52,519 bases of DNA from Proteromonas lacertae (taxonomy: Eukaryota). A program made the position numbers and the translations under genes. The DNA lies in assembly GCA_002245135.1 (NCBI GenBank), contig NGBS01000920.1, forward strand, positions 1-52,519, read 5' to 3'. Shown in pieces: positions 9,936 to 52,453 of the stretch. Each line of letters starts with the position of its first letter. The stretch's first letter is position 1. The notes under the pieces were generated by a model. It was given only the letters and a program-made list of their open reading frames with translations. It ran no database searches and had not been told where the DNA came from.

Positions 9936-10575
9936 ATATATATATATAACCGTAAGAATATCACTGTATGTGGGTAAACCGTACCAGACTATTCTTAGGT
10001 GCCTTCTACAGGTAAGAATAAGCGATTTGAGTGTGAATTAGTTTTTGGTACGGGTTATACTGGAGCAAGTGGTGAATTTAAAATTGTGTATATATTTTAG
10101 TGTGATAATAAATTATGAGTCAAATTTTAATTTGATGTTTTCAATAGTTTTTAGCATAGGATAATAGAAATAAAGTGTTTAAATAGATAGTTAGCTACCT
10201 GTTCTACCCCGGCAGGGTAGCTACTTTATAGAATAAGAAATGTATTTCTATGTAAGTAAGTAGCGTGTCCTGTGTAGCCTAGCTAGGACTTAGTGATTAA
10301 ATAGTGTGGTGGCCAAGCTACAGAATAAGTTCTTACTTTTTTAGTTATTTTTTTCATTTATCAATTTATTAATGGATTTATATAGTGTAGTTAAAAACAT
10401 TCAAAAGAATTTAAATAGTGTCAAAAATATATATTTAAAGAATTATCTGCAGTATTCTATATTTTTTACTAAATCGAAATTCTGACGAGAAACTGTTGTT
10501 ATAAACAGAAAAAAGAAACAGTTTTGATTTTCCTGATATTTTTGAAAAACCTTTTTTTATCAAAAAAATATAAAT

Positions 10576-27351: not shown

Positions 27352-27740
27352 ACGATAATAATGAAAGAAGGGGGGAAATGAGTACAATTTGAAACCCCTA
27401 TTTTTTTTGTATTTTTTGTATTGATTTCCCCCTATGTGTTTTTTGTCCGTTTCATTATCAAACCATTATTCAAGCTTACATTATTTTTCGCTTTTCTGTT
27501 TGAATTTAAACAAAAATAATTATTCCATTTGAATCCTCATCTTATGATGAATCTATTTATGTTGTTAGTTCAAATTATAGAAAGTGAATGACATATAATT
27601 TCAAAAAATAATTCAATAAAAACAATCTCAATAGGATGGTCAACACATGGTGTGATATGACACCATATAGTGACCATCCTATGTAATAAAAAAAAAAAAA
27701 TGGAGTTCAAGTCAAATCTCGAAATGCATCTATTTTTCTA
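27352..27740 (+). repeat. Left copy of imperfect inverted repeat, with 52-nt hairpin (27631-27682)
   Basis: ATAATAATGAAAGAA, CCCCTATGTGTTTTTTGTCCGTTTCA, the hairpin and TGGAGTTCAAGTCAAATCTCGAAATGCATCTATTTTTCTA all have reverse-complement counterparts, in mirrored order, at 43762-44133. Confidence 0.88.
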
Positions 27741-27851
27741 TTATTGATATTTCTTATAAGACTTGTTATAATGCTAATTAATTATGTAAATTATGAAAAC
27801 AACACTCCCACACAAACACAATATATCATTTGAACCAATTAGGACCAGAGA

Positions 27852-28653
27852 TTAATAATCATTTTGGTACTCTGGCTCCTCATCATCATCATCTACTATG
27901 AATTGTGAGAAGTTATTATCATCATCATCATCTTCCTCTGTAGTACTATCTTCTTGTTTTTGGTTTTTGGTTGAAATGTTTTTTTGATTTATTTTCTTTC
28001 TTTTGAATCTTGGAGCTTTAGATGTACTGCACTTTCTTTTTGTGGATACCACCTTTAACAACTTGTTGTTGTCATCATCATCATTATAATCATCATCATT
28101 CAGGTTATCAAACAACGATGCTATAGAGACTTTACTACTTACTATACTTTCAGCAGTACTTCTGTAAACTATATCTCCTTTCGAATTCTTGTTTTCTTCT
28201 TTTTCGCATTTTGCTAAATCGTTGTCACCGAAATGTATGATATACATACAAGTCAGTTCCACCATGTCCTCCATTGCATGGTCAAGCATACGATCATACT
28301 ATTGATTCAAAATTGAAATATATATTAATTGGATATACGATGCTTTTGTCCAGATCCTCTTTATACATGATATTACATAGCAGGACAGACATCAACACTC
28401 TGGACATTTTTAATCTTTCATGTCGATCATCAATCTTTTCAATTTCTGTGAATCTTTTGTACCATGTAGTGAAACGCCTTATACTGAAGCTACCATTCCA
28501 GCTATAGACATATAATAATATATTATACCTATATCGTTGCAAATCTTTCTCATGTTCTACAATCGTCTTAAAATTCTCACATAAAATTTTATAGACGCTC
28601 GGATTTGGATCATTGATGAAGCTGTTTTTGTATAGCAACTTCCAGTTGCTCAT
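27852..28653 (-). CDS. Spliced hypothetical protein (gene X, copy 1; 244 aa); exons 28653-28529, 28501-28339, 28298-27852
   Basis: GT-AG introns 28502-28528 (27 nt) and 28299-28338 (40 nt). Splicing joins ORFs 28294-28695 and 27852-28289 and gives colinear alignment with copy 2. Acidic/basic (NLS-like) tail. Confidence 0.85.
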
Positions 28654-28829
28654 AATAAGTGAATTGAAAGGAAAATAACGTTGAACAATGAACAAATGTT
28701 ATATGTATATATGAAACGGATATATATATTTTTTAATGTTGTTATAAAGACATATAACTCTATTAATTTAGATAATAATCATAATGAAATGAATTTCATT
28801 ATTACTTTTGTTTTTTGTTTTTGGACCAT

Positions 28830-30116
28830 ATGTTTAGCACTAATAGTTACGATCCACATTTATACAGCTCATATAGCAACCAGAACCCATATCCTGTCAA
28901 ACCGTTACCTACAAATGGTAACCTATCACTTGCAACATATATTAACCATGGAGCACCGAATATTACACATCCAACAAGAGAGGCTTCGTATGAAGACCAA
29001 ATGTCAAACCAAATTGCCCAATATCGATCACGCTTAGATGAACTATATAAAAAATATTATTACCTTAATGAAAATGAATTTGTCAAAATGACACAACATT
29101 TGTCTAGTATGAATGATATAGCTCCACCACCAGATGTAGTACGTGAATACTTAAGGAGACAACCTGGAAAACAAATTGTTGATTTCAAATATAAAAAAAA
29201 TAATCCATTCGCAACTATCAAGAAGCCTGGGTACTTCCAAATGGATATTGTGTTTTTCTTACCTGATATGGAACATTTGTATTTTATCGAAATGAATTCA
29301 AGAAAAGTATGGGCAATATTTATGCCTAATAAATATGGTGATATTACATTGGATGCATTTCAGAAGTGGTATTATGAAACAGATGCCTATGGAAACAAAA
29401 CACATAAAAATGTGGTAAGTATCCTATCAGAAGCTGATGCTAGTTTTTCAAATATCAAGAAGTTATGTGATGCTGAAGGAATATCATATTTTCAAAAAGA
29501 TGGTTCAGAGCATAAAATAGAGTCATTATTGGATAGATCAGTGAGTGTGATAAAAAGATTGTTGTACAAACACTTGGTGGATCTGGGATATGATGCACCT
29601 ACATATATGGCAGATATTGATCACAATGATAAGCATATTATACCAGATATGAATTATAAATTAAAACTCGATAGTATAATACAGGAAGTGATAGATGACT
29701 ATAACAACAAGCCATTACCAGGAATTAAAGGATATACACCAAATGAAGTATTCCATAGTCCAGAATTACAAAAACAAATATTACAAAAATCAATTAACTA
29801 CAACTTAAAGAATTATGAAAAATTGGACCATACTGGTCAAAATTTCGAAGTAGGTGATTTGGTGAGATTCAAAGAGAGAAGATGTAAAATGGATAAGAAC
29901 ATATACTGGTCAGACAATGTATATAAGATAATCAAGAAAAATCGATATTCATACAATTTAGGTGATATCAATGGGAATGACATTCAAGGTTTTTAATTAA
30001 TTCGATTCAAACACTATGAGTTGCAGTTAGTGAGAAAAGATGATGCACTAACCACATGGTTTAGAAAAATACTGGAGAGACCCAAGAGAAAGAAGGGAGA
30101 CAAATCAATATTGTAA
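28830..30116 (+). CDS. Polinton-type retroviral-like integrase with atypical catalytic residues; in-frame TAA at 29994-29996 near the C-terminus
   Basis: YFQMDIVF, LYFIEMNSRKVWAIFMPNK, YNNKPLPGIKGYTPNEV, FEVGDLVRF, WSDNVYKI. After the TAA the frame continues RFKHYELQLV. Confidence 0.85.
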
Positions 30117-30363
30117 CGAATAAATTTTTATTATGCTATATATTGTATATGTTGTTTTTTATTATTGGGTATTGGATAGACTAGCTACGATGAGGGCTGC
30201 GTTTCTAATTTATAATTATTTATTTATTTATTAAATTAATTTCACAAGGAATTTATGGAAGTGTAATAATTTCTACTTGGATGTGTTGTTTAATATTGCG
30301 CCATTGAAATTCGGCTTGAATCATCCTGGCATGGTATATCTAAATGCCCTTTTTTTATTTAAT

Positions 30364-30459
30364 TGGGATCTGATAGACTGTGCAAGGAAAAAAGAGTCAT
30401 GCAGCTGGCATTAGTGGTTCGATTCCTAGCACAGACTATTAGTAATCCCATTCTTTTTT
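30364..30459 (+). ncRNA. Candidate Pol III hairpin RNA (adenovirus VA-RNA-like)
   Basis: Long terminal stem 30364-30389 / 30423-30450. Perfect B box GGTTCGATTCC at 30416-30426 (about +53). T6 at 30454-30459. No tRNA cloverleaf evident. Confidence 0.55.
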
Positions 30460-30495
30460 AATTTCTTTTTTTTAAAAATATTTTATTTTTTATAT

Positions 30496-30903
30496 ATGCT
30501 TACACTACCACCACAGATTGAATATAAATTACCAGAACTTGAATCCAAGGTAACAAAGAAATATCATTTAAGTGGTCCAGACAGATACTTGGATTTGTAT
30601 AGCCTACAATTCCTTATATTTTTTTATCATCGAAAACCTATATATCAATGGTATTTTGAGTTAACACACAAAATGATTAACATGATCATGAGTCAACTTT
30701 TGATATTAGTGTTTGTAGGTCCTTGTGACTTAGGAGATAGAGATAGACCCAAAGTTACATACACACCAACAATGAAAAAAGTAATCATTAGAATGCCACA
30801 AAGACACTTTAATGGTAAGATGCCAATATTCTTCAAATGTACTCATATGGATAGAGAGATGATAGAATATATTGAAACTCATACAATATTTCACCACACA
30901 TAA
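30496..30903 (+). CDS. Hypothetical protein
   Basis: 135-aa ATG ORF, convergent with the protease; no recognised motif. Confidence 0.5.
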   Translation: MLTLPPQIEYKLPELESKVTKKYHLSGPDRYLDLYSLQFLIFFYHRKPIYQWYFELTHKMINMIMSQLLILVFVGPCDLGDRDRPKVTYTPTMKKVIIRMPQRHFNGKMPIFFKCTHMDREMIEYIETHTIFHHT

Positions 30904-30949
30904 AAAAAACAGAAAAAAAAATAATTAAGTAATAATTTTATATTATATA

Positions 30950-31633
30950 TTATATTAATCCAAATTGTTTTTTCATTAACCTAATTTTTGCTTCACCTAC
31001 TATTGTATTATAGTCAGTAGCCTTTTTGAAACTACACTGATCTCTTAAAATATTTTTCAAAAAATTAATAGCAAAAAAACCACAGTTGGCAGTATTTGAA
31101 TTTTGATTCTGTACTCCATTGATTTTAAGTTCATACTTTTCATTATGATACTTCTTTAATTTTTTCAAATTTTTTTTAAATTCTTCCAAGTGTTGAGGAT
31201 CTTCACCAAATGAATCATAGTACAGGAATTGCTTCTTGATATTGTCAACTACTAAAGCCACCCAATGACCTATAGAATCAAGGCTAGCTTGTGTGGTGAG
31301 TGTATTGATTATGATTCCCCATTGATTCTTCTTTTTGGGTATAGGAAGTACAAGCTCGTCCCAGCAGAACACTCCCATGAACTTTCCATGGAAATTATTG
31401 AACTCATTTTTCACAATTAACTCTATATCAAAGTTCGATAAGGCATCTGAAGTGATACTGTTATACAAAACTTTCCTACGTGAAATTAATTTCTTTACTT
31501 TTTTATTATTTCCATTACCTATTCCAAAGTAACTCATAGCTTCACTGAGTTGTTTTCCTTTATCATCTTTAGCATCAGTTGACGGCTGTACTTTAATATC
31601 TGTTTCTGCTTTAGGAGTAATCAATTTATTCAA
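30950..31633 (-). CDS. Adenain-like maturation cysteine protease, element B
   Basis: IGHWVAL, YYDSFG, VQNQNSNTANCGFFAINFL: His/Asp/Cys catalytic residues plus oxyanion Gln. Confidence 0.93.
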   Translation of the reverse strand: MNKLITPKAETDIKVQPSTDAKDDKGKQLSEAMSYFGIGNGNNKKVKKLISRRKVLYNSITSDALSNFDIELIVKNEFNNFHGKFMGVFCWDELVLPIPKKKNQWGIIINTLTTQASLDSIGHWVALVVDNIKKQFLYYDSFGEDPQHLEEFKKNLKKLKKYHNEKYELKINGVQNQNSNTANCGFFAINFLKNILRDQCSFKKATDYNTIVGEAKIRLMKKQFGLI

Positions 31634-31667
31634 CTTCTACTATTATATATATAAATTAACATGAATT

Positions 31668-32201
31668 TTATACCATTTGCTGCATTTGTGACATCTTGAT
31701 TTGGTTAATTGGATTACTCATATACTCACCCATCTGCATCCTAGTCTTTGCACTTGCTTGAGCCATTTCATTGTAATTAGGTCTATTCATATTCACATAC
31801 ATGTTAGGACCAAACAAATGCTGATCATCAATCTCTCTTAAACTATTAGCAAGCGGTATAGCCATTGCATTACCTTCATGTAATGATGTAGATAACATAG
31901 AATCGATTGCATTCTGTCTCTCTAAAAATTTTTGCTCATCATTCAATTTACGAATATCACCTTCATTAGGAGGAGTGTCTTTAGAATTCAATTTAGTAAT
32001 CTCATCTTTTATTTCATTTAAACGACTGTTTCTCATATCCACTAAATCTTTCGCATTTTCTCTATAAAAATTATTATATAAACTCTGATAATATTTGTCA
32101 TGTCCTTTATATCCTTCACCTCTCCGTATCTTCTTCCTTTTGCCTTTACCTCTCATCCGAGCAAACACAGCAAGTAGTATTTTCTTATTTAGTTTTTTCA
32201 T
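31668..32201 (-). CDS. Basic-N-terminus virion-module protein
   Basis: MRGKGKRKKIRRGEG N-terminus followed by a coiled coil. Positional and weak sequence equivalent of 20108+ and 51136+. Confidence 0.65.
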   Translation of the reverse strand: MKKLNKKILLAVFARMRGKGKRKKIRRGEGYKGHDKYYQSLYNNFYRENAKDLVDMRNSRLNEIKDEITKLNSKDTPPNEGDIRKLNDEQKFLERQNAIDSMLSTSLHEGNAMAIPLANSLREIDDQHLFGPNMYVNMNRPNYNEMAQASAKTRMQMGEYMSNPINQIKMSQMQQMV

Positions 32202-32269
32202 AATAACTTAATAGAAAATAAAAAACAATTTAATTATAATAATAATGTGTAATATAAGTATTATTAATA

Positions 32270-32884
32270 TTATTGAACATAAACAGGCTCGATAGGCTCG
32301 CCTTGTATTTCTCTACCTGCAATATCATTACCGAATGGTTTATCTTCTTCTGGTTCTGGTTCTTTTACTTTCTCTATTTTCTCTTTCTTAGGATTTGAAC
32401 TCTTTTCTAATTTCTTCATATATTTGCCTAATTGATCTCTAGTTTCTTTCAAAGCTATTTGTAATTCAGCTTTTGTCATACGACTAGGAGGAGGTAATGA
32501 TGAGTCCCTATCCTTTTTGCTATTTTTTCTACCACCACCACGTTTGGACTTTGGCTCGTCTAAAGCATTTGATTTTTGTTTCTTGCTAGATCTTCTTTTG
32601 GATCTCTCATGTGATCTTGATCTTGATCTGGATTTATGGGAGTGTTTTTTACCTTTTTTTGAATTTTTATGAGATGATGATCCATCATTCTGTAATATGT
32701 TGTATATATCCTTTGGAGAGAATTGTGATAGTAATTCATTGATCATAGCATCGCTTGGTTCAGCTTCTGCGATTTTTGGTTTGGACATCTTGGAATCATT
32801 TTCATTTATTGACTCTACTTCACTATCAGACTCATCAGTAGAACTATCATCACTCACATATTCAGTTGATTCAGTATCACTCAT
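32270..32884 (-). CDS. Acidic/RS-rich basic virion-module protein
   Basis: Acidic N-terminus, SRSRSRS tract, C-terminal EPVYVQ resembling MPVYF (A) and APFY (C). Confidence 0.7.
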   Translation of the reverse strand: MSDTESTEYVSDDSSTDESDSEVESINENDSKMSKPKIAEAEPSDAMINELLSQFSPKDIYNILQNDGSSSHKNSKKGKKHSHKSRSRSRSHERSKRRSSKKQKSNALDEPKSKRGGGRKNSKKDRDSSLPPPSRMTKAELQIALKETRDQLGKYMKKLEKSSNPKKEKIEKVKEPEPEEDKPFGNDIAGREIQGEPIEPVYVQ

Positions 32885-32976
32885 TATTTATTTCTATGTT
32901 ATGAAAAATAAAATTAACAAAAAAACAATGAAAATAATAATAATATAAGTATTATTAGCATTATTAAAAGTCAAGC

Positions 32977-33270
32977 TTACATTCGAGCCACCTTTGATTT
33001 TAAATATGCGTTCAATAATGCTTGTTGATTACTCCCACCTCCATTGAATGGTAATCTACCTCTTCCTGACCTACGTCTTCTACGACCAAATCCCATTGTT
33101 GATAATCCATCTGCGATATCGTTCTTTCCAAATTCCCTAGCTATTTTGGATGCTATTTTATGATCCTTTGCCCAGTTAAATGCTTTGGAACCCCAATTTT
33201 TTAACTTACCCCAAAATGAACCACCCCTTCTTCCATAAACGCATCTACGTCTTCTACCACCTTTTGGCAT
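32977..33270 (-). CDS. Small basic core protein with pVI-like amphipathic helix
   Basis: RRGG-SFWGKLKNWGSKAFNWAK; MGFG-RRRRR. Confidence 0.7.
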   Translation of the reverse strand: MPKGGRRRRCVYGRRGGSFWGKLKNWGSKAFNWAKDHKIASKIAREFGKNDIADGLSTMGFGRRRRRSGRGRLPFNGGGSNQQALLNAYLKSKVARM

Positions 33271-33329
33271 TATGTTATTTCGAATGAAAATAAAGAAATA
33301 CGATTAAAATAGAAAAAAATAAAATTAGA

Positions 33330-33817
33330 CTAGAAAACTCTAATCTTATTGTCAATATATCGATTATCGAGACTATTACTACTTTTACGTCTTTTACCAG
33401 AACCAGTCTTTTTCTTTGCTAACAAAAATTTCGGTATAGTGCTTGGACCACCTAACATCTTTACAGCAAATGGATTAGCCATTCCACCATTTTTTAAATA
33501 GGGCATACTGCCTGACCACCACTAATTACACTTTTTACTTCCTTTGGTATCTTTGCATTCTTAACTTTATTCCAAAAAGAACCACCACTTATACCACCAT
33601 CATAATTCCATTCTGCTTGTCCACCTCTTCTTCTACGTTTTCTACCATATCCTACATTGGATACAACATTACCTAAGGCTGGACCTACACCTGGGATTAA
33701 ACTAGCTGCTGTTGATAAAATTTTTGTTTTCTTAAAGAAATTCTTTACTCCATCCCAGAACTTGCCTTTACCTATGATATACTTACGATATTTCGCTTTT
33801 GAACTTCTTTTAACCAT
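33330..33817 (-). pseudogene. Second core/pVI-like precursor of B, frameshifted near 33500-33515
   Basis: IIGKG-KFWDGVKNFFKKTKILSTAASLIPGVGPAL closely matches the N-terminus of 18771. The shifted frame continues NGGMANPFAVKMLGG...LDNRYIDNKIRVF* to 33330. Confidence 0.65.
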
Positions 33818-33855
33818 AATTTGAGATAATTATATTTTTGAGTGATAATATAGTC

Positions 33856-33877
33856 AATAATATCAATATTGTCATTA
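33856..33877. promoter_or_regulatory. Candidate bidirectional promoter motif of element B
   Basis: AATAATATCAATATTGTCATTA has a 21/22 copy at 40306-40327. Both lie between divergent start codons and contain the palindrome CAATATTG. Confidence 0.5.
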
Positions 33878-33891
33878 TAGCCGTTTTTAAT

Positions 33892-34251
33892 ATGTCAGCT
33901 GGTCCAATACCTCAAATAACTTTTAATAGTGGTGTTGCATATCAACAAGATGGTCAACACCCTCAATATCTACCACAACAACAACCGAATCAACAATCGC
34001 AACAATCGGTACAAAATGATCAACAAACTCAAGTACTGAAAACACTCGAAACATTACCTCCAGAGGCACAACAGATGTTAAAGAGTATTAATCCATGGAC
34101 ATTCAAGGAAGCACAAGCTATATTAAATAAATTGGCAGATGAAGTGTTAATGGAGAGAAATCAAACATCAATACAACAACAACAGCCATACCCAGTACAG
34201 AATTTAACTCCTGTGCAATATGCTAGACAAAATATGACATTAATAGGTTAA
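33892..34251 (+). CDS. Gln-rich hypothetical protein
   Basis: ATG at 33892 within ORF 33838-34251; Q/P-rich. Confidence 0.6.
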   Translation: MSAGPIPQITFNSGVAYQQDGQHPQYLPQQQPNQQSQQSVQNDQQTQVLKTLETLPPEAQQMLKSINPWTFKEAQAILNKLADEVLMERNQTSIQQQQPYPVQNLTPVQYARQNMTLIG

Positions 34252-34310
34252 TAATTAACATAATATCAATATTTGAAATATATTCGTTTCATTTTATTAT
34301 TTTTTGTATA

Positions 34311-34778
34311 TTGTGTTCTATGGATTCAAACAACCATAATACCATACACGTTATAGGCATAATGGGTAAATCAAATGATCAAGACCAAAAGAAAGAAAAT
34401 TTAGAAGATAAGAAAATGCGATTCAGTCAAAAAAGAAAAAGAGAGAATGATTATTTAGATAATGTGTATAAGTACTTATATGGAGAAGCAGAATGTACTG
34501 ACGATGAATCAGATGACTATGATCCTGAAGATGATCCAAATGCAAGTGATGTTGATAGTAATGGTAATTTAAAGGATTTCATTGCATATAGTGAAGATGA
34601 AAATGACGCTGAATCGAATATGGAGCAGGATGATTATGATAGCGATAATGATCAATGGTATGATGTATATGATATTCCTGAAATTGTGAATGACAATGAT
34701 AATAAGATACATATCATCAAGAGAAAATTATTAAGTACTATATCTGAATCATTAGATGAATTAGTACCACAAAAATAA
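34311..34778 (+). CDS. Acidic hypothetical protein
   Basis: D/E-rich ORF with KRKR and DSNGNLKDFI. Confidence 0.6.
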   Translation: MCSMDSNNHNTIHVIGIMGKSNDQDQKKENLEDKKMRFSQKRKRENDYLDNVYKYLYGEAECTDDESDDYDPEDDPNASDVDSNGNLKDFIAYSEDENDAESNMEQDDYDSDNDQWYDVYDIPEIVNDNDNKIHIIKRKLLSTISESLDELVPQK

Positions 34779-34910
34779 CATAAGCATTTGGTCAAGCCAA
34801 ACATGCAATGTGACGATTCAAAAAACCTTGATAAAGAAGAAGATTTAGAAGATCTTTAAGTGTTAAGTGATTAAACGTAATTACTTTATTTTTTTTAATT
34901 AATTATTTTT

Positions 34911-35555
34911 TTGCTTATTATGAACACTATACCACCATTACAACATACTGACTCACCTAAAAGTATCGTTAAACCTCTAGATTTCACTGAATTAGAAAGA
35001 GCATTGCCGATTGAAGATGCTGTAAAACCAGTATGTCTATTCAATGAGAAAGATGTAAAGAAAATGGATGTGCATACATATAAAGCTAATTTAGATGTTT
35101 TGGAGCATAGTGAGAGAGCAATATGTGATTGTGAGGGACATGCTGGTTTAGCATTACCAATTGGTGAAGAGAGTTTACCACGTGTGAAATTCAATATAAC
35201 TCAAATTCAGCATATTTTAGAAATTTTTAAAGAATCTCTAACTCATTATAGAATTCAAACAAGATTTTTTAATCTCAGTGTAGAAGATTGTATAGAGGTG
35301 AGTAATAGAGTAGAAGATGCTATAAAATTATGTTTGAAAGATACTGTTCCGTACTGTGCAGTAAAAGTTGGAGTTCATAATGTGTTAATATGCCTATGGG
35401 AACGTATACGTAATAATGAAAAAGAAGGAAATCACTATGAGTTGGTGCATTTTGAAAGGGAGTTAGATGAGTATGAGCGGTTAATATGGAACGTGTATCA
35501 TTGTCTTTGTAAATTTGTGGGAGTCATATCAAAAAGAGAATACTATAGACCGTAA
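34911..35555 (+). CDS. Hypothetical globular protein
   Basis: 214-aa ORF of complex composition; no family recognised. Confidence 0.65.
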   Translation: MLIMNTIPPLQHTDSPKSIVKPLDFTELERALPIEDAVKPVCLFNEKDVKKMDVHTYKANLDVLEHSERAICDCEGHAGLALPIGEESLPRVKFNITQIQHILEIFKESLTHYRIQTRFFNLSVEDCIEVSNRVEDAIKLCLKDTVPYCAVKVGVHNVLICLWERIRNNEKEGNHYELVHFERELDEYERLIWNVYHCLCKFVGVISKREYYRP

Positions 35556-35650
35556 TTAATTAATTAATTAATGGTTACTATTATTATAATAATTATAATT
35601 ACTTCTCATTATTTCTTCCAAGTTATTTATTTTATGAGTGTCAGTGTGAT

Positions 35651-35950
35651 TTGAGAATTAGACAGATAACTGTATTAGATAAGAAGGATAAAGAAAAATA
35701 CACTATTATCCCAAAATTTGAGGCGCATAGCAGTATCAAGAAATTTGAGCAAAAACTTGAGAAGGAGAAGGAGGATGATGAGGATCAGTGTGCTGAGAAT
35801 CAGGATGTAGATGACATAGATTTAGAGAATATGTATACACAACCTGCAGATTATGATATTATTCCAGTACCAACAACACCTGCTCCGATGAAAAGAAGAA
35901 CTGAGAGTGATAATCAAAACCAACAATACAAGAGAAACAAGAAGAATTAA
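35651..35950 (+). CDS. Small acidic hypothetical protein
   Basis: 99-aa ORF; start uncertain. Confidence 0.45.
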   Translation: MRIRQITVLDKKDKEKYTIIPKFEAHSSIKKFEQKLEKEKEDDEDQCAENQDVDDIDLENMYTQPADYDIIPVPTTPAPMKRRTESDNQNQQYKRNKKN

Positions 35951-35957
35951 TTATTTT

Positions 35958-36824
35958 TTAAAAATCAAATGCATCATCTTTATTAAATATAACATTATTA
36001 CCATATGGAAATATTATTTTTTGTGGGATTAGAATACAATTACCTTCAAAGTTATCCACATTATGTTCTGTAGTAGGATTTTTCATACTAAAACTACATA
36101 TATCACGAGTAATTTCAAAAAAGCATACTTGATGATGCCCACTTAATGACTCAAAAAATATATCTATTCTTGGTACATTATTTATAAAACTTAAATATTT
36201 GTTTAAAAATTTTTCTACATCTGGAGTTAAGATTGAATTAATTATTAGTTCGCTTGTTATTATTTTAACAGGATTTAGTATTTCTATTTGCAAATATGTT
36301 TGAAAAGCTGCATATCTTACAAAGCAATAACAGTTTGGTAAAACTTGTCTTGCTTGAACAATTTCTAATTGACCATCTACAGATTTTAATATCATGTTAT
36401 TTTCACCCATAGAACTCCATTTTATACGATTCTCCATTTTCCATGAACTATCTTGATATTCACTTCGATATCCTATATAGTACATTATACTATTGACATT
36501 ATAAGCAATTGAATTAGCATCACCATAAATTGTAGAATATAAAATAGATAACATATCATGTATGCTCTTTTCCCAGCTCTCTAATTTGGTCTTTCCAATG
36601 ACATTCACAATTCCATCAATTTTCTCACTAGTTGCACTATCAATACCACCACCTGATCCAGATGATCCTCCTGTACCACTATTCTTGATATCGACCAACA
36701 TTTCTCTAATCGATTTAGCATCTCCAACTTTTTCTCCCAAATTGCTTGTAATCGATGTCAGTGCCCTCGTGACAGGTGTTAGATCTGTTGATACAGCTTG
36801 TTTTTTAATAGGACGACCAAACAT
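35958..36824 (-). CDS. Putative fiber/spike-like virion protein, element B
   Basis: Likely ATG at 36824 (MFGRP). Helical stalk, GTGGSSGSGGG hinge, beta-rich C-terminus. Directly downstream of the ATPase. Confidence 0.5.
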   Translation of the reverse strand: MFGRPIKKQAVSTDLTPVTRALTSITSNLGEKVGDAKSIREMLVDIKNSGTGGSSGSGGGIDSATSEKIDGIVNVIGKTKLESWEKSIHDMLSILYSTIYGDANSIAYNVNSIMYYIGYRSEYQDSSWKMENRIKWSSMGENNMILKSVDGQLEIVQARQVLPNCYCFVRYAAFQTYLQIEILNPVKIITSELIINSILTPDVEKFLNKYLSFINNVPRIDIFFESLSGHHQVCFFEITRDICSFSMKNPTTEHNVDNFEGNCILIPQKIIFPYGNNVIFNKDDAFDF

Positions 36825-36879
36825 AAAATATAGCAAAATAAACAAAAAAAATATATTAGTGACAATATGGGGATTATTA

Positions 36880-37737
36880 TTATTCCGAATCGCTGGGATA
36901 ACTTGATGAATCAGTGGACTCATCATCGCTGCTATAGGAAATGAGGTGATCATATTTATTATTGTGATTATATCTATTATTACTATTATCTCTAATTCTA
37001 CTATCAAAATTCACTCTAAATTCATGATTATATAAATCGATATATAAAAATGAGTGATTACTCTGTTTGGTTGCATAATCATAATATGATTTGAAAACAT
37101 CGAAATCAATCCATATATCCAAACTTGCATACAAATTTCTTAAATTAGCCATACTCAGGTTTTTGAATACCAAACAGTAATCAAGCTGTAAACGAACAGA
37201 GGGAGTAATGTCAGTGACATATTGACTTGATATAATTACTTTTGACTTGTAATGACGGTTTGACTTAAGTAATTTAGAAACGGATTTATTTCTTAAATCA
37301 AATGATATATCATCGAATATAAATATATTCTCTGGGTAATCATAATTATCTTTGTCTATATCTTTGATATTATCTAATACTGCATCCAATATATTCACTC
37401 TATCTTCATTCACTACTGAATCATAGCAATGGTACTCAATTTGGTTATACTTGAGCATATCAGTGATTTTCTCATATATAATATCCTTGGATATAGTTGC
37501 AACGAAAAAATACACTACTTGGTCATATCCCTTTTTTAACAAGTGTTGGATCATATTAAATATAAGTGTAGTCTTACCACTGTTTTTCTTAGCTAAAATA
37601 AATATGTTGCAGAAAGGCTCCTGAAAATAGTCATATCCAAGGACACTATCTTTGGAGCGTTTTCCACATCCTTTGACTACTGTCTCAACAGGATTTATGA
37701 CTATGTTGTTTATTTTTTCTAAATTAACTTTACTCAT
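36880..37737 (-). CDS. A32-like DNA packaging ATPase, element B
   Basis: AKKNSGKTT, IFIFDD, SNRHYK, ISSQY. Clear paralogue of 12063-12824. Confidence 0.93.
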   Translation of the reverse strand: MSKVNLEKINNIVINPVETVVKGCGKRSKDSVLGYDYFQEPFCNIFILAKKNSGKTTLIFNMIQHLLKKGYDQVVYFFVATISKDIIYEKITDMLKYNQIEYHCYDSVVNEDRVNILDAVLDNIKDIDKDNYDYPENIFIFDDISFDLRNKSVSKLLKSNRHYKSKVIISSQYVTDITPSVRLQLDYCLVFKNLSMANLRNLYASLDIWIDFDVFKSYYDYATKQSNHSFLYIDLYNHEFRVNFDSRIRDNSNNRYNHNNKYDHLISYSSDDESTDSSSYPSDSE

Positions 37738-37799
37738 AACAAAAATAACAAAAACATAATTATAAGAAATATAACCGTTATCGATATTATGATTATTTT

Positions 37800-39281
37800 T
37801 TAAACTACACTTACAATACCACTTCCATTAATAGTGACCATACGTCCAGTGATGATATAGAAACGATGAGTGATATCATTATTAGTAAAGTCATTCTTAC
37901 CAGGTGTTGAAAATTCAAAGGTTATTTTCAAATCAGTAGCCAAAGGTCTACCTGCCTGGTTCTTAATATTGTCCAAATCCTTAGAGCCAAAATTCAATAT
38001 CTCAAAGAACTTGTCATTGAACTTCTTATCTTTTCTGAATATATCAAACCATGAGTCTTGGAAATATTCACGGACAGTCATATAGCTATCATAATATTGC
38101 ATAAGTGTATAATCTGGCTGATAGACAAAGTCATTGATCATCCATCTGAATTGTGCATTTTCAGGTACATGTGCATATCTTTTTAATGATTCTATCCATG
38201 GCCTATAGATAATGTAACGAACAAATGGTCCATTGGAACTATTCAATGTGAATGAATAATTGAATATGCCAGATCCACCTGATGGTACAACAATTTGATG
38301 GCATCTGAAATCATTGAATTGAATAGGTTTTGATAAACAATATTGTTTGGTATTATTGTTGCATTGAGTATCCTTGTTGATATAAGCATAAAATTTAAAA
38401 TTCTTAAATGTCATATTTTTAATACCACCATTCCTATCCCATGCTATAACATTATTTAAATCTTCAAAGCCATTTTCATCAATACAATATTCGATTGGTG
38501 TATATGATTTCAAATTTCCATAATTTGCTTTAGTTTGGAATCGAATGCATATATACATTCTCTCTCCAAAGAATACATCGCTCTTTAATGCAGCAAATGT
38601 ATTGTAAAATTTACCTAACTGTAATTTGAAATGTAATGTCTTTTTATTCTTATATTGAATAGCACTAGTTACTTTTTCATCACTTTCATTATAAATCTCT
38701 ACAGTATTAGTAAATTCATCATCTTCCGTTTCTTTATCCATTTTCCATTTATTAACATCTTGAATAAGATAACTGTGTTCATCGTTACTCCAATCTAATT
38801 GTATTCCATCATAGTAATTGTCTTGATAGAATATATCGCATCTCTTTCTAACTAATTCATCCATAAATACACGATATGGTTCATACGAATCATCAAGCTT
38901 GACCAGATCTGTTCCAGTCTGGTTACAAATTCTAAAAGAGGCCAAGCCAAACCCTTCTTTAATTCCTCCAATTGTACTTGGATATAAATCATCATCTTTA
39001 TTTATAAGTTTCTTACTTAAATCTGCTCTAACAGCACCTACTTCTGAACCTTTTGCTACTGGTTCTGTTTCTACATCTATATCGAATTGGATATATGACT
39101 TAGCGAGATTAATGATATTATCTCCACTTATCTCCCATCTAATCTCTTCTGTATACGTGTTATCACTTAGAGTATATTCTGATGTTGATCCCATCGGAGT
39201 CAATCTCACATAATTATAGAAGGGTAGCATCACAGGGACATCTACACCATGTTTCTGTTCTTTTGGAATAGATAAAGCCAT
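37800..39281 (-). CDS. Major capsid protein (double jelly-roll expected), element B, intact 493 aa
   Basis: IRWEISGDNIINLAKSYIQFDI resembles the Polinton MCP N-terminal strand motif. Size, beta-rich composition and position between ATPase and minor capsid agree. Confidence 0.85.
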   Translation of the reverse strand: MALSIPKEQKHGVDVPVMLPFYNYVRLTPMGSTSEYTLSDNTYTEEIRWEISGDNIINLAKSYIQFDIDVETEPVAKGSEVGAVRADLSKKLINKDDDLYPSTIGGIKEGFGLASFRICNQTGTDLVKLDDSYEPYRVFMDELVRKRCDIFYQDNYYDGIQLDWSNDEHSYLIQDVNKWKMDKETEDDEFTNTVEIYNESDEKVTSAIQYKNKKTLHFKLQLGKFYNTFAALKSDVFFGERMYICIRFQTKANYGNLKSYTPIEYCIDENGFEDLNNVIAWDRNGGIKNMTFKNFKFYAYINKDTQCNNNTKQYCLSKPIQFNDFRCHQIVVPSGGSGIFNYSFTLNSSNGPFVRYIIYRPWIESLKRYAHVPENAQFRWMINDFVYQPDYTLMQYYDSYMTVREYFQDSWFDIFRKDKKFNDKFFEILNFGSKDLDNIKNQAGRPLATDLKITFEFSTPGKNDFTNNDITHRFYIITGRMVTINGSGIVSVV

Positions 39282-39313
39282 TAGAAAACAAAAAGAATAA
39301 AGAAATATAAAAA

Positions 39314-40273
39314 TTAGACTTTAAATACAACAATATCTAAATTAAACTCAATATTATCAAGATTAAGTTCATAGCCATTTTGTTGAGTAATCTGAATAGT
39401 GATCATACCATTGTTATAGGTATTATTAAATCTCTTCGATGTATTCAATATGTCATTATTCTGATATGTAATAAATGGTAACTCAGGATTTGAAACGGGT
39501 ATATTTTCTAATACATTTGAATCCTGCATAATATTCACTATGTCTAATCTAATGGATATAGAATTAACCCATATCAAAGAAGGACGAAATGGTAATTGAG
39601 TAAATGGGAATGGCTTAACCATAATTTCTTGTTGATTCTCTGGTTCTTCAGATGGAATATATTCTTTAAAACAACACCAGTAATTGTTTTTGGGTATACC
39701 TAATATTTTGTAACTAAGATCTTTGGTGATGATCTCTAATTTTTCTATCCAATATACTGGGTCCTTTTCATAGTATATAATATTCATATCATTAGCTACC
39801 TCAATATGATATGTTTGATTATCATCGAAATTGTCTATACGAAATAAATCTCCTTTTCCTTGTATAATAGACACATGTGAACCTTCAGTATTATATGAAG
39901 TATCATTTATTCCAAAAACATCATATGTCATATTTTTTACTAAATTATTGATCATACTTAATATCTGAGTTTCATCATAGAATCCTTCTGGTATTTTGAG
40001 GTGTTTTATGATGTTTGGATACTTTGGTGTATCTACTTGAACATCATGTCTCCATCCCAATGTGAATACTAGTGAAAACTCATCATTTGTTTCTTCCTGT
40101 ATAGTTGGGAATGAATTGGGTATAACAGCATGTAATAAGCTGACATGAGTATAATCATCATCGAATGATTGCAATTTTAATGTCTTCTTATACTTGTTTC
40201 CTCCGCCCATGGAATCAGATAATACAATCATATCAGAATTTAAGTAGTACACACGATGATTCGAAACTAACAT
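39314..40273 (-). CDS. Minor capsid (penton-like) protein, element B
   Basis: VSLLHAVIPNSF, LKIPEGFY, VLENIPV, ITIQITQQNGYELNLDN. Confidence 0.82.
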   Translation of the reverse strand: MLVSNHRVYYLNSDMIVLSDSMGGGNKYKKTLKLQSFDDDYTHVSLLHAVIPNSFPTIQEETNDEFSLVFTLGWRHDVQVDTPKYPNIIKHLKIPEGFYDETQILSMINNLVKNMTYDVFGINDTSYNTEGSHVSIIQGKGDLFRIDNFDDNQTYHIEVANDMNIIYYEKDPVYWIEKLEIITKDLSYKILGIPKNNYWCCFKEYIPSEEPENQQEIMVKPFPFTQLPFRPSLIWVNSISIRLDIVNIMQDSNVLENIPVSNPELPFITYQNNDILNTSKRFNNTYNNGMITIQITQQNGYELNLDNIEFNLDIVVFKV

Positions 40274-40358
40274 AAGATAAAATCTATTTTGAAAATAAAT
40301 TCGTTAATAATGTCAATATTGTCATTATTAGTATTAATTACACTTTTATTTTTTAAAA

Positions 40359-40964
40359 ATGAATAACGATCAGGAGCATAAATATCGTACTGTGCCTTAT
40401 AACTTTTGGAACTCTGATAAACAAATACTCATTAATTGCTTTAGAAAGGATGGCAAAATGAGGGCGCCAACTAAATCGAAATTATGGAATTTGATATGTG
40501 GTGATAAAAAGGAATTAACTTATAGTGAGATCAGATATATACTCAAATACGTCGATGAACAGTATAGATTAGACTTGGAATATAGATTCAAAAATGGATG
40601 TTGGTGGGATGAGAGTAAAGAGAAATTAATTCAAAGATTAGGTATTTCTGATGTAGATGAGACTGTGCGCATTACACCTAATATGTTCCTTGAGTGTGTT
40701 AACAAGATTAAGGAGAAAAGAAACCCATCCTTTGAAAAAACTCATCAATTATTAGAAAGTATTATTATGATGAATCATGAAGCTAATATATTACCTCCTC
40801 CTCCTCCTCCTAATGATAGTAGTAATAAAGAAATAGAAGAAATACAAGTCAAGCTTGAAAATGACAATGACAATGTCAATCTCACAGATTATGACTTATC
40901 TCCAATATCACCAAGATCCATTAAGGATGAATATATTAATAATAACCAATGTCTTGTAAGTTAG
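40359..40964 (+). CDS. Hypothetical protein
   Basis: 201-aa ATG ORF with globular N-terminus and poly-Pro linker. Confidence 0.65.
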   Translation: MNNDQEHKYRTVPYNFWNSDKQILINCFRKDGKMRAPTKSKLWNLICGDKKELTYSEIRYILKYVDEQYRLDLEYRFKNGCWWDESKEKLIQRLGISDVDETVRITPNMFLECVNKIKEKRNPSFEKTHQLLESIIMMNHEANILPPPPPPNDSSNKEIEEIQVKLENDNDNVNLTDYDLSPISPRSIKDEYINNNQCLVS

Positions 40965-41055
40965 TTTATTGATAATAAATACATTACTTTGATTAATTTT
41001 GTTTTCTTATATAAGATTCTCATAAACACACATTGACTTTGATGTAATAACTGTT

Positions 41056-41268
41056 TTGCTTTCAGTTCTCGTATTTGTATCGTATATGATAGCTTTGGCT
41101 CTTTTCAAATACTTAAAGGCACACAATTGTATTCCAAACAATACAGACATAGAAGAACTTAGAAATAATATAGATGCCATGATGAATAAAGGGTTAGAAC
41201 ATGATAAGACACTTAAGGATATTCAGTCTCTTATTGAAATCACTAAACAAAGGAAAATGACTATTTAA
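41056..41268 (+). CDS. Small protein with hydrophobic N-terminus and coiled coil
   Basis: 70-aa ORF; start uncertain. Confidence 0.4.
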   Translation: MLSVLVFVSYMIALALFKYLKAHNCIPNNTDIEELRNNIDAMMNKGLEHDKTLKDIQSLIEITKQRKMTI

Positions 41269-41328
41269 TTATTTTTTAATTTTTATATTATATTATTATA
41301 TTATGTTGTTTTTATTTTTGGTTAAACT

Positions 41329-41430
41329 TGTATCTTACAACTGGCCCAAGTTGTAAGATACATCACAATTCAAGTTACAACTGGCGCCAGTTGTAACTTA
41401 TATTACAATTCAAGTTGCAAAGTGGCGGCC
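41329..41430. repeat. Array of palindromic units with 40-bp period
   Basis: 14-bp perfect stem 41329-41342 / 41349-41362. Perfect 28-bp palindrome 41372-41399. Degenerate third unit from ~41412. Confidence 0.9.
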
Positions 41431-41504
41431 GGATATAGCAATACCAAACACCAAAAACAAACACACATAACATTACATAAAAAAAGAATATATATAGAAT
41501 TACT

Positions 41505-41876
41505 TTAATTATCCATATTAGGAACTGGAATACCATACTGATAATGCCTGCCATTATGCACAACAATACGATGTGGATCATTCTTTGGCGCGGCTCGTGG
41601 ACCGGCTCGTCTTGGTTTACGTTTTGCTCTATCTTTACTTCCTTTTGGTCTTCCTCTTTGTTTAGGTGGATTAGCAGCTAATAATCGTTCATACATTTTC
41701 ATTAATTGTCTATATTGTAATTTAACTTTTGTTTTGTTTTGTAGTGCATTCTTTACTTTGTCTCTATACAAATCATAGCTCTTTCTCCATTTACTCCTGT
41801 TAACTGATTTAGGAATATATGTATTCCAGTCTTTACTAATTTTAAACCCTTTTGGCCATCCTTCATAATAAGACAT
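41505..41876 (-). CDS. Basic AT-hook DNA-binding protein
   Basis: PKQRGRPKGSK AT-hook followed by KRKPRR. Confidence 0.65.
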   Translation of the reverse strand: MSYYEGWPKGFKISKDWNTYIPKSVNRSKWRKSYDLYRDKVKNALQNKTKVKLQYRQLMKMYERLLAANPPKQRGRPKGSKDRAKRKPRRAGPRAAPKNDPHRIVVHNGRHYQYGIPVPNMDN

Positions 41877-41981
41877 GTTGTGATTTTTTATAATTGATAT
41901 TATTTAAAATATAGTAACTATTAATAGTATGTTTATCAAACAAAAACAAACATATATAATAATAATAGAATTTTTAAGTAT

Positions 41982-42428
41982 TTAATCAGAGTCACTACTA
42001 CTACTACTACTAATTCCATCAGCAACATTTCTATCAACTGGATGTATGTGATAAAAATTCCCTCCATTCCATTGATAACTCATATGATGAAAAACATATT
42101 TTTTAAATTTTTGAGGAATACAATCACCATCTGCATACTCATGTTCTCCATTTCTTAATTTTCTATTCATTACTAATATTGAAGCTCTTCTGTCATACCC
42201 ATAGGTTTTGAGGTTTATCATTAATTGATCACCATGATGTCTATAATCACCTAGTACTTCTGGATCATTTCTATTAGTTCTGAGTGAACCACATATAAAC
42301 ACCTTTACTTTATTTCTTTTTAATATTTTCATTGTTTTAATTGGAAATTGAATGACCCATCTATGTGCTCTATTGTCTCTATATCTATGAATGTAAAAAG
42401 CATATTCACCGTTAGGTTGTCTAAGCAC
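41982..42428 (-). CDS. Hypothetical His/Arg-rich protein
   Basis: 148-aa ORF; 5' end probably frameshifted. Confidence 0.5.
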   Translation of the reverse strand: MLRQPNGEYAFYIHRYRDNRAHRWVIQFPIKTMKILKRNKVKVFICGSLRTNRNDPEVLGDYRHHGDQLMINLKTYGYDRRASILVMNRKLRNGEHEYADGDCIPQKFKKYVFHHMSYQWNGGNFYHIHPVDRNVADGISSSSSSDSD

Positions 42429-42863
42429 ATATTATATGTTAAATGGTCAGGCATATTCTTTGTATTTTTTGCTATTATATATATTATTAAATTTTTATGG
42501 GTCTAATCAATAAAGTTATTGTTTGTTTAGTAATACAAATGTTTGAGGTTTGTTAAAAAAATAATATCTCACGATCCATTGACATAATGAATAATCTGAT
42601 GTGTTTCTTATTATATGGCATATTATGAGCAATCGATTGATATAGTTAGATTTCATATATGTTTCATAATCAAAGATGATTTAGATTATTGCCTGAAATG
42701 AGATATTGATATAATTGAGATGGGTATATACCCTAGTAAGTATATATAATTTATAGTTAGCTAAAGTCAATTTGTTTTGTAACAAGAGTACAAAATTTTA
42801 ATGTATTGATCAAGCTATAAAGTTTGACATTTTTCTATTTGATTTAAGTTTTTTGCAGTACAT

Positions 42864-43497
42864 ATGAATAGTGAGATTAAAACAGTTACTGTCTACAAAA
42901 GACAGTTCAATTCAAGAGTAATGAACAATGTATTTCAAGTGCAATTATATAATTTGGAGATGATCTTTAAAGCAAGGAATAAGCTAAGTCGTTATAGGTA
43001 TATTTTATATCTATATATTTTATAGATATAATGGAAAGTTTTTATGCTCAAGTTTAAAAGATTATGTTGAAAGATTTAGAAGACTTCCCTTAAAATTGAC
43101 AAGAAAATCACAGGTTGATGAATACAAGAAGCTTTTAAGCATAATTATGTTCAATTGTCACTATTACCCTAAATCTAAAAAATCATTTGTATATTTATAT
43201 ATCTATATATTTATATATTATAAATAGGTTGATAGAGCATTAGATTACTTTATTTACGATCTACTCCATGAATTAAATATATCTTCTGTAGAATTTGGAG
43301 ATGATGATTATCCATCAAACAGTATAAGTGAATATGAAGATGATAATGGAAACACTAAAGTTAATTTTATTTCTGGTGAAGGTATCAAAACAGTTGTTGA
43401 AGTAGTTGTAAAAGATTTAATAGACAATGTTTTGAAAAAGTTCAAGAAGCCAAGAAAACTTTATGACGACATAGAAGTATTTGACATTGATGAATAG
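42864..43497 (+). CDS. Spliced hypothetical protein (gene X, copy 2; 188 aa); exons 42864-42997, 43026-43188, 43228-43497
   Basis: Absent from the ORF track. GT-AG introns 42998-43025 (28 nt) and 43189-43227 (39 nt) restore one uninterrupted frame homologous to copy 1. Confidence 0.88.
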
Positions 43498-43761
43498 GAC
43501 TGCTAATTAAGTCCTTAAAATTTATTATTATATAAATTTCAATAAAAAATATTATATATCAAAATAGTGTTTGTTTGGGGTTATTATAAGTGTATGTATA
43601 TATGCGTAGCTAATTATACGCAAAATTTGTTTTTATTAAATTAGATTTCGATTATAGTCAAACATAAATAATAAATACATAGAAAGATAGAGAAAAAGAA
43701 AACAAATCAATTGATATATTTATAATGTATTCAAACTAATCCTAGCTCTAACTATAACACT

Positions 43762-44133
43762 TAGAAAAATAGATGCGTTTCGAGATTTGACTTGAACTCC
43801 ATTTTTTTTTTGTTTTTTTTTATTACATAGGATGGTCACCATATGTTGTCATATCACACAGTATGGTGGCCATCCTATCTATCATTGTTTTTTGAAACTT
43901 TTTAAGAAAATTAAATTTCGATTATGATCAGAAAGTCAAACTAAGGGCATATATGAGCCCAGCATAAATAGAGAAATCGATTGATATATTTATTATGCAT
44001 TAAAAACGTTTCTAAGGGTGAAAAAACAATATGGGGTTATGTATATTATAAAACGGATATTTTTTTGAAACGGAAAAAACAATAGGGGGTTATGTATAGG
44101 TATACATAACCACCTTTCTTTCATTATTATGTT
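43762..44133 (-). repeat. Right copy of imperfect inverted repeat, with 52-nt hairpin (43827-43878)
   Basis: Reverse-complement similarity to 27352-27740. Its outer edge coincides with the truncation point of the element C MCP. Confidence 0.88.
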
Positions 44134-51135: not shown

Positions 51136-52453
51136 ATGAAAAAATCAAATATTATTAACAAATTGATCACTGAATTGGCAAAAAGAGTATCTTCTAGGAT
51201 AGGCAAGAGATCTCATAAAAGAAAATACAAAAGAAAATTAAATAAAAGTTTCAAGAGATTAGCATATGATATGGATGCTCCTGAATTAGTATACAATGTT
51301 AACCAATCTAGATTGGATCATTTACAAGGAATGCAATTCGATAGCCAATTACAGAAAATAAATGAACTGAAAAACAACTTAATAGATATTAATAAAAAAA
51401 TAACAGACTATGAAGGAATGGAATCTCTACCAGTTAATGAGGATAATAAAGATGAAATCTTCAAAAGAGAACAAGAAATGATAAAATTAAATTTAGGAAA
51501 ACAAAGATTAGAAAATCAATTGAAGATGATGAAAGGAGGATTTATGTTTGGAGCTTCTGATCCTCTAACAAGAAGTGTTCCATATGGAAGGACAGGAAGT
51601 ATAAGAGATTCTTTATTACCAAGAATGTATGATCCTAAATCAATTCCTACAGGAGGATTAAATTATGATCCTTTAAAAGATGGAGTTGGAGATGCAGATA
51701 TAAGTAATTTTTTAAAAAGTAATTTTTAATTCTTATTATATTTTGTTTATAGGTTTGAATGAAAGAAATGAGGACAATTCTCGAAATATCAAGATTAATA
51801 AACTTATAGTTGAAAATTCCTATCCTTCTATCAATATTGTTCCTCCAGAAAGACCTCTTACAGTTCAACAAACACCTACTTTTACAACTCCGATTGCAAC
51901 TTTAGGAAGAACAACAGAAACTCCAATATCCTCTTTTGTAAATGAAAGAAAATTATCTGGAAATGTATATTGAACCAAAGAATTATTTTCTATCAAAAAC
52001 TTCAGGGTATGCTCAAACAGATGAACCTCAGTTGTTAAAACATTGGGTTAATCCTTCAGTTAATTTACCACCTCCTGAAAGATCATTTAGTACAGGAGGA
52101 AACTAATACAAATCCTCCTCCTGAATATAAAGATGCACAAACAGATGTGTATAAACCATTTCCTCCACCTCCTCCAGAAACTAAAACTGCAAGTACTATG
52201 TTTGATCCTCCAGCCTTTTCAACCAAAATGGAGTATTATGAATCGTCCTATAAAAAATTACATTACTCCAGATGATCCTCATTATGAAAATTATATTGCA
52301 CAAATGAATAGACAAGCAACATATAATCATGCTGTATTAGATCATCCTAGATATATGACACCAGAACAAAGAGCAAAATATAGTATACCTGATATCAATG
52401 AGATGGGACAAAGATATGATAATTTAGAAAAGAAAAATTCTCATTATTTTTAA
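51136..52453 (+). pseudogene. Basic-N-terminus/Pro-rich protein of C, with a probable 34-nt intron and later frameshifts
   Basis: GTAATTTTT...GTTTATAG (51719-51752) joins ORFs 51079-51729 and 51743-51973 in frame. Further shifts near 51970, 52100 and 52210. Confidence 0.6.

Follow-up and report, generated by a model that had tools for sequence, protein, structure and literature searches.

Two diverged copies of an orphan gene with very probable tiny spliceosomal introns near the ends of a polymerase-less Polinton-like element in Proteromonas lacertae

Does an integrated Polinton-like virus of a protist carry a gene that is read through the host spliceosome? The question is raised by contig NGBS01000920.1 of Proteromonas lacertae (assembly GCA_002245135.1), analysed here over a window of 52,519 nt (the whole stretch, positions 1–52,519 of the forward strand). 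A preliminary description had reported in it two highly diverged copies of one gene, each with two tiny GT–AG introns at the same positions. We refer to this gene as gene X, to the element around it as element B and to the neighbouring elements as A and C.

Results

Gene X copies share the positions and phases of probable introns

Copy 1 lies on the reverse strand and is formed by exon 1 (28653–28529, 125 nt), exon 2 (28501–28339, 163 nt) and exon 3 (28298–27852, 447 nt; a last conserved segment followed by an acidic/basic tail), separated by putative introns of 27 nt (28528–28502, phase 2) and 40 nt (28338–28299, phase 0). Copy 2, on the forward strand, has exons at 42864–42997 (134 nt), 43026–43188 (again 163 nt) and 43228–43497 (270 nt), with putative introns of 28 nt (42998–43025, phase 2) and 39 nt (43189–43227, phase 0, with an in-frame TAG at its end). 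Spliced, the frames are open over 244 and 188 aa, and alignment of the two proteins, which covers exon sequence from all three segments, is gapless over 117 residues at 25% identity (9/36, 12/54 and 8/26 by exon segment). Its local score of 142 compares with a mean of 38.5 and a maximum of 71 in 2,000 shuffles; among ungapped offsets the best scores 116 and the runner-up −33, with both junctions at the best offset. The reported coincidence of intron positions in diverged copies is thus borne out. Nucleotide identity at the three codon positions is 38, 54 and 27%, a signature of selection on the gene X protein, and third positions are saturated between the copies, in keeping with the earlier suggestion that the introns were kept over a long divergence. 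Full-length comparison of gene X involves these two copies only.

All four stretches begin with GTATA, end with TAG and are 82–92% AT, against 64–74% in gene X exons. They have the GT..AG ends of U2-type introns, and their removal restores a conserved frame. The splice model ranked first among 283 open-frame models for copy 1 and 28 for copy 2. Copy 2 has no ATG-to-stop model with zero or one intron and no entry of at least 90 aa in the open reading frame list, confirming that it has no ORF unless spliced. Intron 1 of copy 1, whose length is a multiple of three, lacks a stop and reads through in frame; its call is based on alignment (score 142, or 134 without the intron), position and composition. 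The one relative, P0001 (93%), keeps the residues straddling all four copy 1 splice sites and the same stop.

Sense-strand, AT-rich GTATA..TAG sites are absent from the 22,080 nt of other viral ORFs in the window, against four in gene X, and the core genes of element B are intron-free, as expected from the description of Polinton core genes as intronless. A simple gene finder trained without gene X recovered three of the four introns (both in copy 2 and the second in copy 1, missing copy 1 intron 1), with an intron model set up after these introns had been seen; it also called seven further introns, mostly doubtful. From sequence, the four stretches are very likely spliceosomal introns, and if the splicing is real then gene X is transcribed in the nucleus. 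A host spliceosome tuned to very short introns, as proposed earlier, may be involved; the window contains no intron of a host gene for comparison. A ciliate code with reassigned stops was ruled out, as ORFs of up to 1,355 aa are open under the standard code.

Gene X copies lie near both ends of one Polinton-like element

Both copies sit near the ends of a single 16.8-kb Polinton-like element B (27355–44130). Its inferred left terminus (27355–27375, forward strand) matches the inverted right end at 19 of 21 nt and lies 20 nt upstream of the start of a neighbouring pPolB; its inferred right terminus (44110–44130, reverse strand) interrupts, at 44130, a capsid gene that belongs to a neighbouring element. 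A 13-nt terminal motif occurs exactly twice in the window, in inverted orientation, and homology stops there. Apart from the terminal nucleotides and a 160-nt block at 82%, the inverted ends are degenerate, with patchy similarity. Neither the 6-bp target-site duplication of Polintons and Mavericks nor any other of 5–8 bp is present within 3 nt of the ends.

The gene set supports the Polinton-like setting proposed earlier. Element B encodes a double jelly-roll major capsid protein (37800–39281, reverse; model pTM 0.66, Foldseek E 1e-9 to PBCV-1 and iridovirus capsids), for which a search of viral contigs gave no relatives, and an adjoining probable minor capsid (penton) protein (39314–40273, reverse), whose homologs stand beside capsid genes in related loci. 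The A32-like packaging ATPase (36880–37737, reverse) has 86 homologs, many with PF04665, and is 47% identical to the window's Pox_A32 protein; in a tree built by a quick method the window's two ATPases and 16 Logan proteins form their own clade. Also present are a Ulp1/adenain-like cysteine protease (30950–31537, reverse; Pfam C48 1.8e-8, C5 1.8e-5) and, divergent from copy 1, an integrase-like ORF (28830–29996, forward), which has no Pfam match itself but aligns weakly (pairwise E 2e-4) with a Pfam rve protein of locus L068, with D at the third acidic position. The capsid, ATPase and maturation protease are those expected of the Polinton-like supergroup. No pPolB lies within element B, both pPolB genes of the window being outside 27355–44130, and its scanned ORFs (longest 493 aa) gave no Pfam match to an SF1/SF3 helicase or primase. 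No core gene is duplicated between the ends.

Each gene X copy is followed by a non-coding block of ~160 nt with a strong hairpin, kept far better than the gene itself: 27590–27740 (reverse) beyond copy 1, with a 55-nt hairpin at 27631–27685, and 43762–43919 (forward) beyond copy 2, 82% identical to the left block, with its hairpin at 43827–43881. The hairpin has no Rfam match at E 1 and is not a tRNA, and between the two blocks compared none of 39 pairs shows a two-sided change. The block probably acts as a cis signal of the element ends or gives rise to a small RNA from them. A TATATA box stands upstream of both gene X copies, a feature of only 4 of 20 element B genes; TATA boxes precede 6 of 14 genes in the neighbouring elements.

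Gene X is an orphan

A homologous-protein search and a representative library returned P0001 alone. Among 1.84 billion representatives no cellular homolog was found (with a query that lacked exon 3 and retained the intron codons), nor did the search of viral contigs return gene X. Across 87 loci, tblastn and a two-sequence profile gave nothing (best domain E 1.2), and a conserved 20-mer had no match in metagenome contigs; two viral matches to an 18-mer, devoid of other similarity, were dropped as chance. Pfam, NCBIfam and PDB sequences likewise gave no match (Atlas best 0.83). The 119-aa unspliced frame of copy 1 is predicted to form a helical bundle (pLDDT 57.6); this partial model had no BFVD match at E 0.001 and resembles generic helical bundles only, a vinculin tail match (VIA best Z 8.4, rmsd 2.9, 90 aligned) being within noise for such folds. 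Both exon 3 translations carry basic clusters and acidic C-termini.

An analogy to adenovirus E1A/E4 had been drawn. Pfam, PDB and BFVD gave no match in its favour, with a partial, low-confidence model. Adenovirus E1A and E4 are read inward; the gene X copies, by contrast, point outward to the termini of element B, and the analogy is a loose one.

Discussion

We favour, with moderate confidence, a reading in which gene X is an orphan accessory gene of a single integrated Polinton-like element that lacks a polymerase, with one copy near each end and ~25% identity between them. Both copies very likely carry the same pair of tiny inherited introns, and their product probably acts as a regulator in the nucleus, the gene being transcribed by host RNA polymerase II and its transcript spliced by the host during the integrated state of the element. 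An ancestral gene X with both introns would have been duplicated together with the terminal region. It would then be transcribed in the nucleus from the integrated element and spliced there by the host; the helical N-terminal domain of the product may bind a partner and the basic/acidic tail could serve nuclear import and activation. A role in latency or early control is our best guess from composition and analogy.

The same stretches might instead be AT-rich insertions or frameshifts in a decaying, unspliced gene. Frameshifts and stops do occur nearby, in elements A and C and in a Hydin piece; intron 1 of copy 1 can be read through, and when its peptide is aligned with that of intron 1 of copy 2 the score is +18, in low-complexity (Y/I/L) sequence. 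Decay would nevertheless have to account for four GT–AG stretches that share two homologous codon positions and whose removal in each case yields a gapless frame, for the absence of similar stretches from 22 kb of other ORFs and for the otherwise intact listed ORFs of element B, and we regard it as highly improbable. A spliced gene X could also be cargo acting on the host rather than a viral regulator. The place of copy 1, flanked by the left end on one side and the integrase-like gene on the other, is the one at which Widen et al. (10.1101/2022.07.12.499685) describe intron-containing cargo, and a Hydin–pPolB fusion in the window shows that host–viral joins arise. Such cargo in nematodes has raised GC, which is not seen here, since gene X (34% and 28%) lies within or near the 29–39% range of element B; the lack of a cellular homolog among 1.84 billion representatives, searched with a query that had the intron codons but not exon 3, also speaks against cargo. 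The two copies, placed alike at the termini, have diverged to saturation, which implies that the gene has long been part of the virus lineage. We therefore consider cargo unlikely.

Element B itself may be asymmetric by nature, or it may have arisen when two insertions from diverged subfamilies fused. Under fusion gene X would be the same spliced gene, each parent having had its own in symmetric terminal repeats, and a deletion that removed the polymerase would have brought together the left half of the first insertion and the right half of the second. The missing target-site duplication, the patchy ends and the mismatched flanks (pPolB of element A on the left, the capsid gene of element C on the right) all suit such an event, as does an ATPase family with many subfamilies at 47–89%. 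The lack of a replicase is also suggestive: a pPolB, helicase or primase-type match was found in nine of nine long related loci with a scanned candidate, apart from three with tested ORFs of fibre-like or unassigned type. Against fusion, the genes between the ends are complementary, with no duplicate and no visibly cut gene, there is no step in GC or GC3, and one promoter-like motif is present in both halves; the mismatched flanks are explained equally well if two members of an asymmetric family recombined. We judge fusion possible but the less probable origin. It bears on the two copies of the preliminary description: they are homologous, yet not just counterparts from two viruses. One is placed within the left end and the other within the right end of a single element whose genes are non-redundant, and they would be orthologs from two viruses only if fusion occurred.

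Gene X is a variant on known themes, since genes with introns have been described close to the ends of Mavericks, as have viral latency genes rich in introns. Element B shares with Polintons and Mavericks, as described by Barreat & Katzourakis (PMC8097293) and Krupovic et al. (PMC5499653), a DJR capsid, A32 ATPase, Ulp1-like protease, 17-kb size, nested integration and core genes without introns, and more tentatively the integrase-like gene; it differs in lacking pPolB and a TSD, and in its degenerate ends and probably spliced orphan at both. Vertebrate Mavericks are reported to lack introns. In nematode Mavericks (10.1101/2022.07.12.499685) the intron-bearing cargo is found at one end and encodes a protease or kinase of host type, rich in GC. 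Like copy 1 it has introns and sits between terminus and integrase beside intronless core genes, whereas gene X is an orphan of element-like GC, present at both ends, with probable introns of 27–40 nt kept through saturated divergence.

Other protist viruses offer partial parallels. Protist endogenous PLVs share the morphogenetic module and the multi-family invasion of a protist genome (Bellas et al., PMC10120064; Chase et al., PMC9356565); both papers take such elements to be free of introns and call genes in an intron-blind way, by which gene X would be missed. The punuivirus (10.64898/2026.10.09.758095), with its latency genes, carries host-type introns (mean 176 nt, RNA-verified) in a subset of non-structural genes and is likewise an integrated protist virus, but is a giant virus with no homology to the small element B, whose introns are predicted from sequence. 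Dinoflagellate PLVs and the intron-rich mirusviruses also have spliceosomal introns, in the former as introners, young transposon insertions (PMC12166617), and in the latter enriched in virion genes (PMC12768974); the probable introns of gene X are instead ancient and very short, and occur only in a gene outside the core set. The word 'intron' is absent from Bellas & Sommaruga 2026, and none of the papers listed in the literature searches, judged by title or text passages, describes tiny introns conserved in a PLV gene near a terminus.

Intron-blind surveys of protist endogenous viruses would miss copy 2. Splicing of an accessory gene is a sign that transcription takes place in the nucleus and depends on the host, a point relevant to separating Polinton-like viruses with nuclear replication from those that rely on a giant virus. 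A satellite life style would also be suggested by an element that lacks a polymerase and has paralogous genes at its termini. Taken further, element B might represent a replicase-free, helper-dependent Polinton-like lineage of a short-intron protist. Each end would then bear a copy of a host-spliced latency regulator, duplicated long ago, with a conserved hairpin RNA or origin behind it, and host splicing would gate the switch between integrated and productive states; we consider this extended scenario unlikely.

A further observation concerns the Hydin sequence in the window, where one piece is fused to a pPolB fragment as a host–viral join. A Hydin search among longer proteins found nothing. 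Comparison with two sets of structure entries gave about equal scores, a weak argument against an animal or green-algal host: the three Hydin pieces scored 181, 124 and 52 bits against 7n6g/7sqc, which we take to be Chlamydomonas Hydin entries, versus 158, 135 and 50 bits against 9ijj, presumably the mouse entry.

Probable splicing of gene X

Gene X, an orphan gene present in two diverged copies, was proposed in the preliminary description to carry two GT-AG introns in each: 27 and 40 nt in copy 1 (28653–27852, − strand) and 28 and 39 nt in copy 2 (42864–43497, + strand). We reproduced all of the described coordinates, lengths, phases and junction peptides for both copies. The spliced frames encode 244 and 188 amino acids, respectively, and their alignment scores 142, against a maximum of 71 in 2000 shuffles. 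A conserved gapless core of 117 residues (29 identical) draws on each of the three exon segments, with a best offset score of 116 and a runner-up of −33. Nucleotide identity between the copies is 38, 54 and 27% at codon positions 1, 2 and 3, a sequence pattern that indicates a protein under selection whose silent sites are saturated.

For copy 1, enumerating every GT-AG intron of 18–90 nt yielded 283 models with an open frame, 4 of them with a single intron; for copy 2 it yielded 28, each containing at least two introns. The proposed intron pair ranks first among the models of each copy, and does so again when the top 150 of the 283 copy 1 models are ranked jointly with all 28 of copy 2. Comparable sense-strand intron-like sites are absent from 15 other viral ORFs (22,080 nt). 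A Markov gene finder, trained without gene X and given intron rules set in knowledge of its introns, returned 51 models, of which 7 contained introns. Of the four gene X introns it found three, both in copy 2 and the second in copy 1; the first intron of copy 1 went undetected, and seven further introns were called, mostly spanning stops in decayed regions. Intron 1 of copy 1 is the weakest of the four, being in frame and stop-free and adding 8 score points; only 1.6% of 7816 ORF windows have a lower coding score. P0001, the single database relative of gene X (93% identical), differs from copy 1 in 5 of the 96 residues encoded by exons and in 3 of the 23 encoded by introns, with splice-site residues unchanged, a pattern compatible with the splice model, not decisive for it. 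On these sequence comparisons, splicing of both copies at the proposed introns is very probable, and the twin gene with its predicted introns is a real feature, well supported by sequence.

A T-rich tract at 42810–42860 (+) ends in CAG just before the start codon of copy 2 and might supply the acceptor site of an intron in that copy's 5′ UTR. An intron-like GTATA..TAG spacer lies at 31673–31634 (−), at the end of gene 31668–32201; acceptors at 37 or 40 nt give an in-frame join to ~33 codons of coding character that precede the ATG of the protease, possibly marking a third spliced gene of element B. The AT-rich 34-nt GT-AG stretch at 51719–51752 (+), at the end of gene 51136–51729, would on removal link that gene to an ATG-less frame (51753–51973), or it may be no more than spacer sequence of a decayed element.

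Ends, content and origin of element B

DNA 3′ of the two gene X copies is homologous in inverted orientation, with a 160-nt block at 82% and patchy similarity beyond it as far as the terminal 21 nt, 19 of which match. The 13-nt core of this terminus has exactly two occurrences in the window. The right end, at 44130, interrupts a capsid gene of the neighbour; on the left, 20 nt separate the end from the start of a pPolB downstream of it that continues from element A. From this terminal homology and the end positions, element B, the integrated Polinton-like element that contains both copies, spans 27355–44130. It carries copy 1, integrase-like, protease and arginine-rich core-like genes, an ORF that we read as fibre-like, an ATPase, an MCP modelled as a double jelly roll, a probable penton protein gene and copy 2. 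None of these genes is duplicated between the ends, and the ORFs scanned gave no polymerase or helicase match.

The 160-nt block holds a hairpin of 55 nt, with z-scores of −6.5 and −7.4 on the X-sense strand and a stability that none of 200 shuffles equalled. In the four base pairs that survive substitution, the change is on one side only and involves G-U; compensatory changes on both sides are absent. Rfam and tRNA searches gave no match to the hairpin. Conservation of the block far exceeds that of gene X, which suggests a cis signal or small RNA.

No target-site duplication was found at the ends of element B, and its flanks come from different elements; some rearrangement has therefore occurred. 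On balance, we read element B as a single asymmetric element. A deletion joining two subfamilies would also fit, but the genes complement one another and their composition does not change abruptly, and for this reason we favour recombination of two copies from a single asymmetric family as the source of the flanks.

The integrase-like ORF (28830–29996, +) has D in place of the catalytic E of related integrases, and a chromodomain match was not found in it. A CAATATT-type motif recurs at 33857, 34260 and 40307, upstream of divergent structural gene clusters. Partly palindromic tandem 40-nt repeats between convergent genes (41320–41425) are a possible origin or binding site. Upstream of ORF 30496, a GGTTCGATTCC box at 30395–30435 (+) resembles a Pol III B-box; it drew no tRNA call.

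Possible role of the gene X protein

Family, sequence and structure searches placed the gene X protein in no known family and gave no specific fold; a partial model is predicted to be all-helical. Exon 3 of both copies encodes basic clusters and a terminal acidic tail. Retention of intron 2 in either copy is predicted to bring a stop after a hydrophobic tail of 12–14 residues, losing the acidic/basic region. A TATATA box, shared by 4 of 20 element B genes, lies upstream of both copies, whereas several structural gene clusters have a different motif; TATA at 6 of 14 genes in neighbouring elements weakens this contrast. Host Pol II would transcribe gene X, the host spliceosome would remove its introns, and the protein would act as a regulator in the nucleus, either while the element is integrated or early on. 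We propose such a regulatory role only tentatively.

Relation to known elements

Vertebrate Mavericks are reported to lack introns (PMC8097293), and surveys of protist elements presume their absence (PMC10120064, PMC9356565). Published work also describes intron-bearing cargo between TIR and integrase in nematode Mavericks (10.1101/2022.07.12.499685), introners in dinoflagellate PLVs (PMC12166617), intron-rich punuivirus latency genes (10.64898/2026.10.09.758095) and intron-rich mirusviruses (PMC12768974). Element B stands out by its conserved, very short introns, by carrying paralogs at its two ends without a polymerase, and by a terminal hairpin that is also conserved. The definition of Polintons includes pPolB (PMC5499653); element B lacks it and is therefore assigned no more narrowly than to the Polinton-like supergroup.

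The window is AT-rich eukaryotic DNA using the standard code, filled by nested Polinton-like elements with 2 pPolB, 2 A32-like ATPases, 3 proteases, 3 capsid genes and 1 integrase-like ORF. Its ATPases and 16 Logan proteins form a clade of their own. An intronless Hydin fragment (1700–6324, −), with stops and frameshifts and an in-frame fusion to a pPolB piece at ~6140, implies that the host has cilia or flagella; it scores about equally against algal and mouse reference entries. The host is likely a protist. The pPolB at 6324–9940 is interrupted by a MITE-like, hAT-like insertion of ~1.1 kb (8733–9821), whose ends are inverted over 11 nt and which is accompanied by an 8-bp duplication. A degraded rve integrase remnant at 1–900 (−) comes from a separate transposon.
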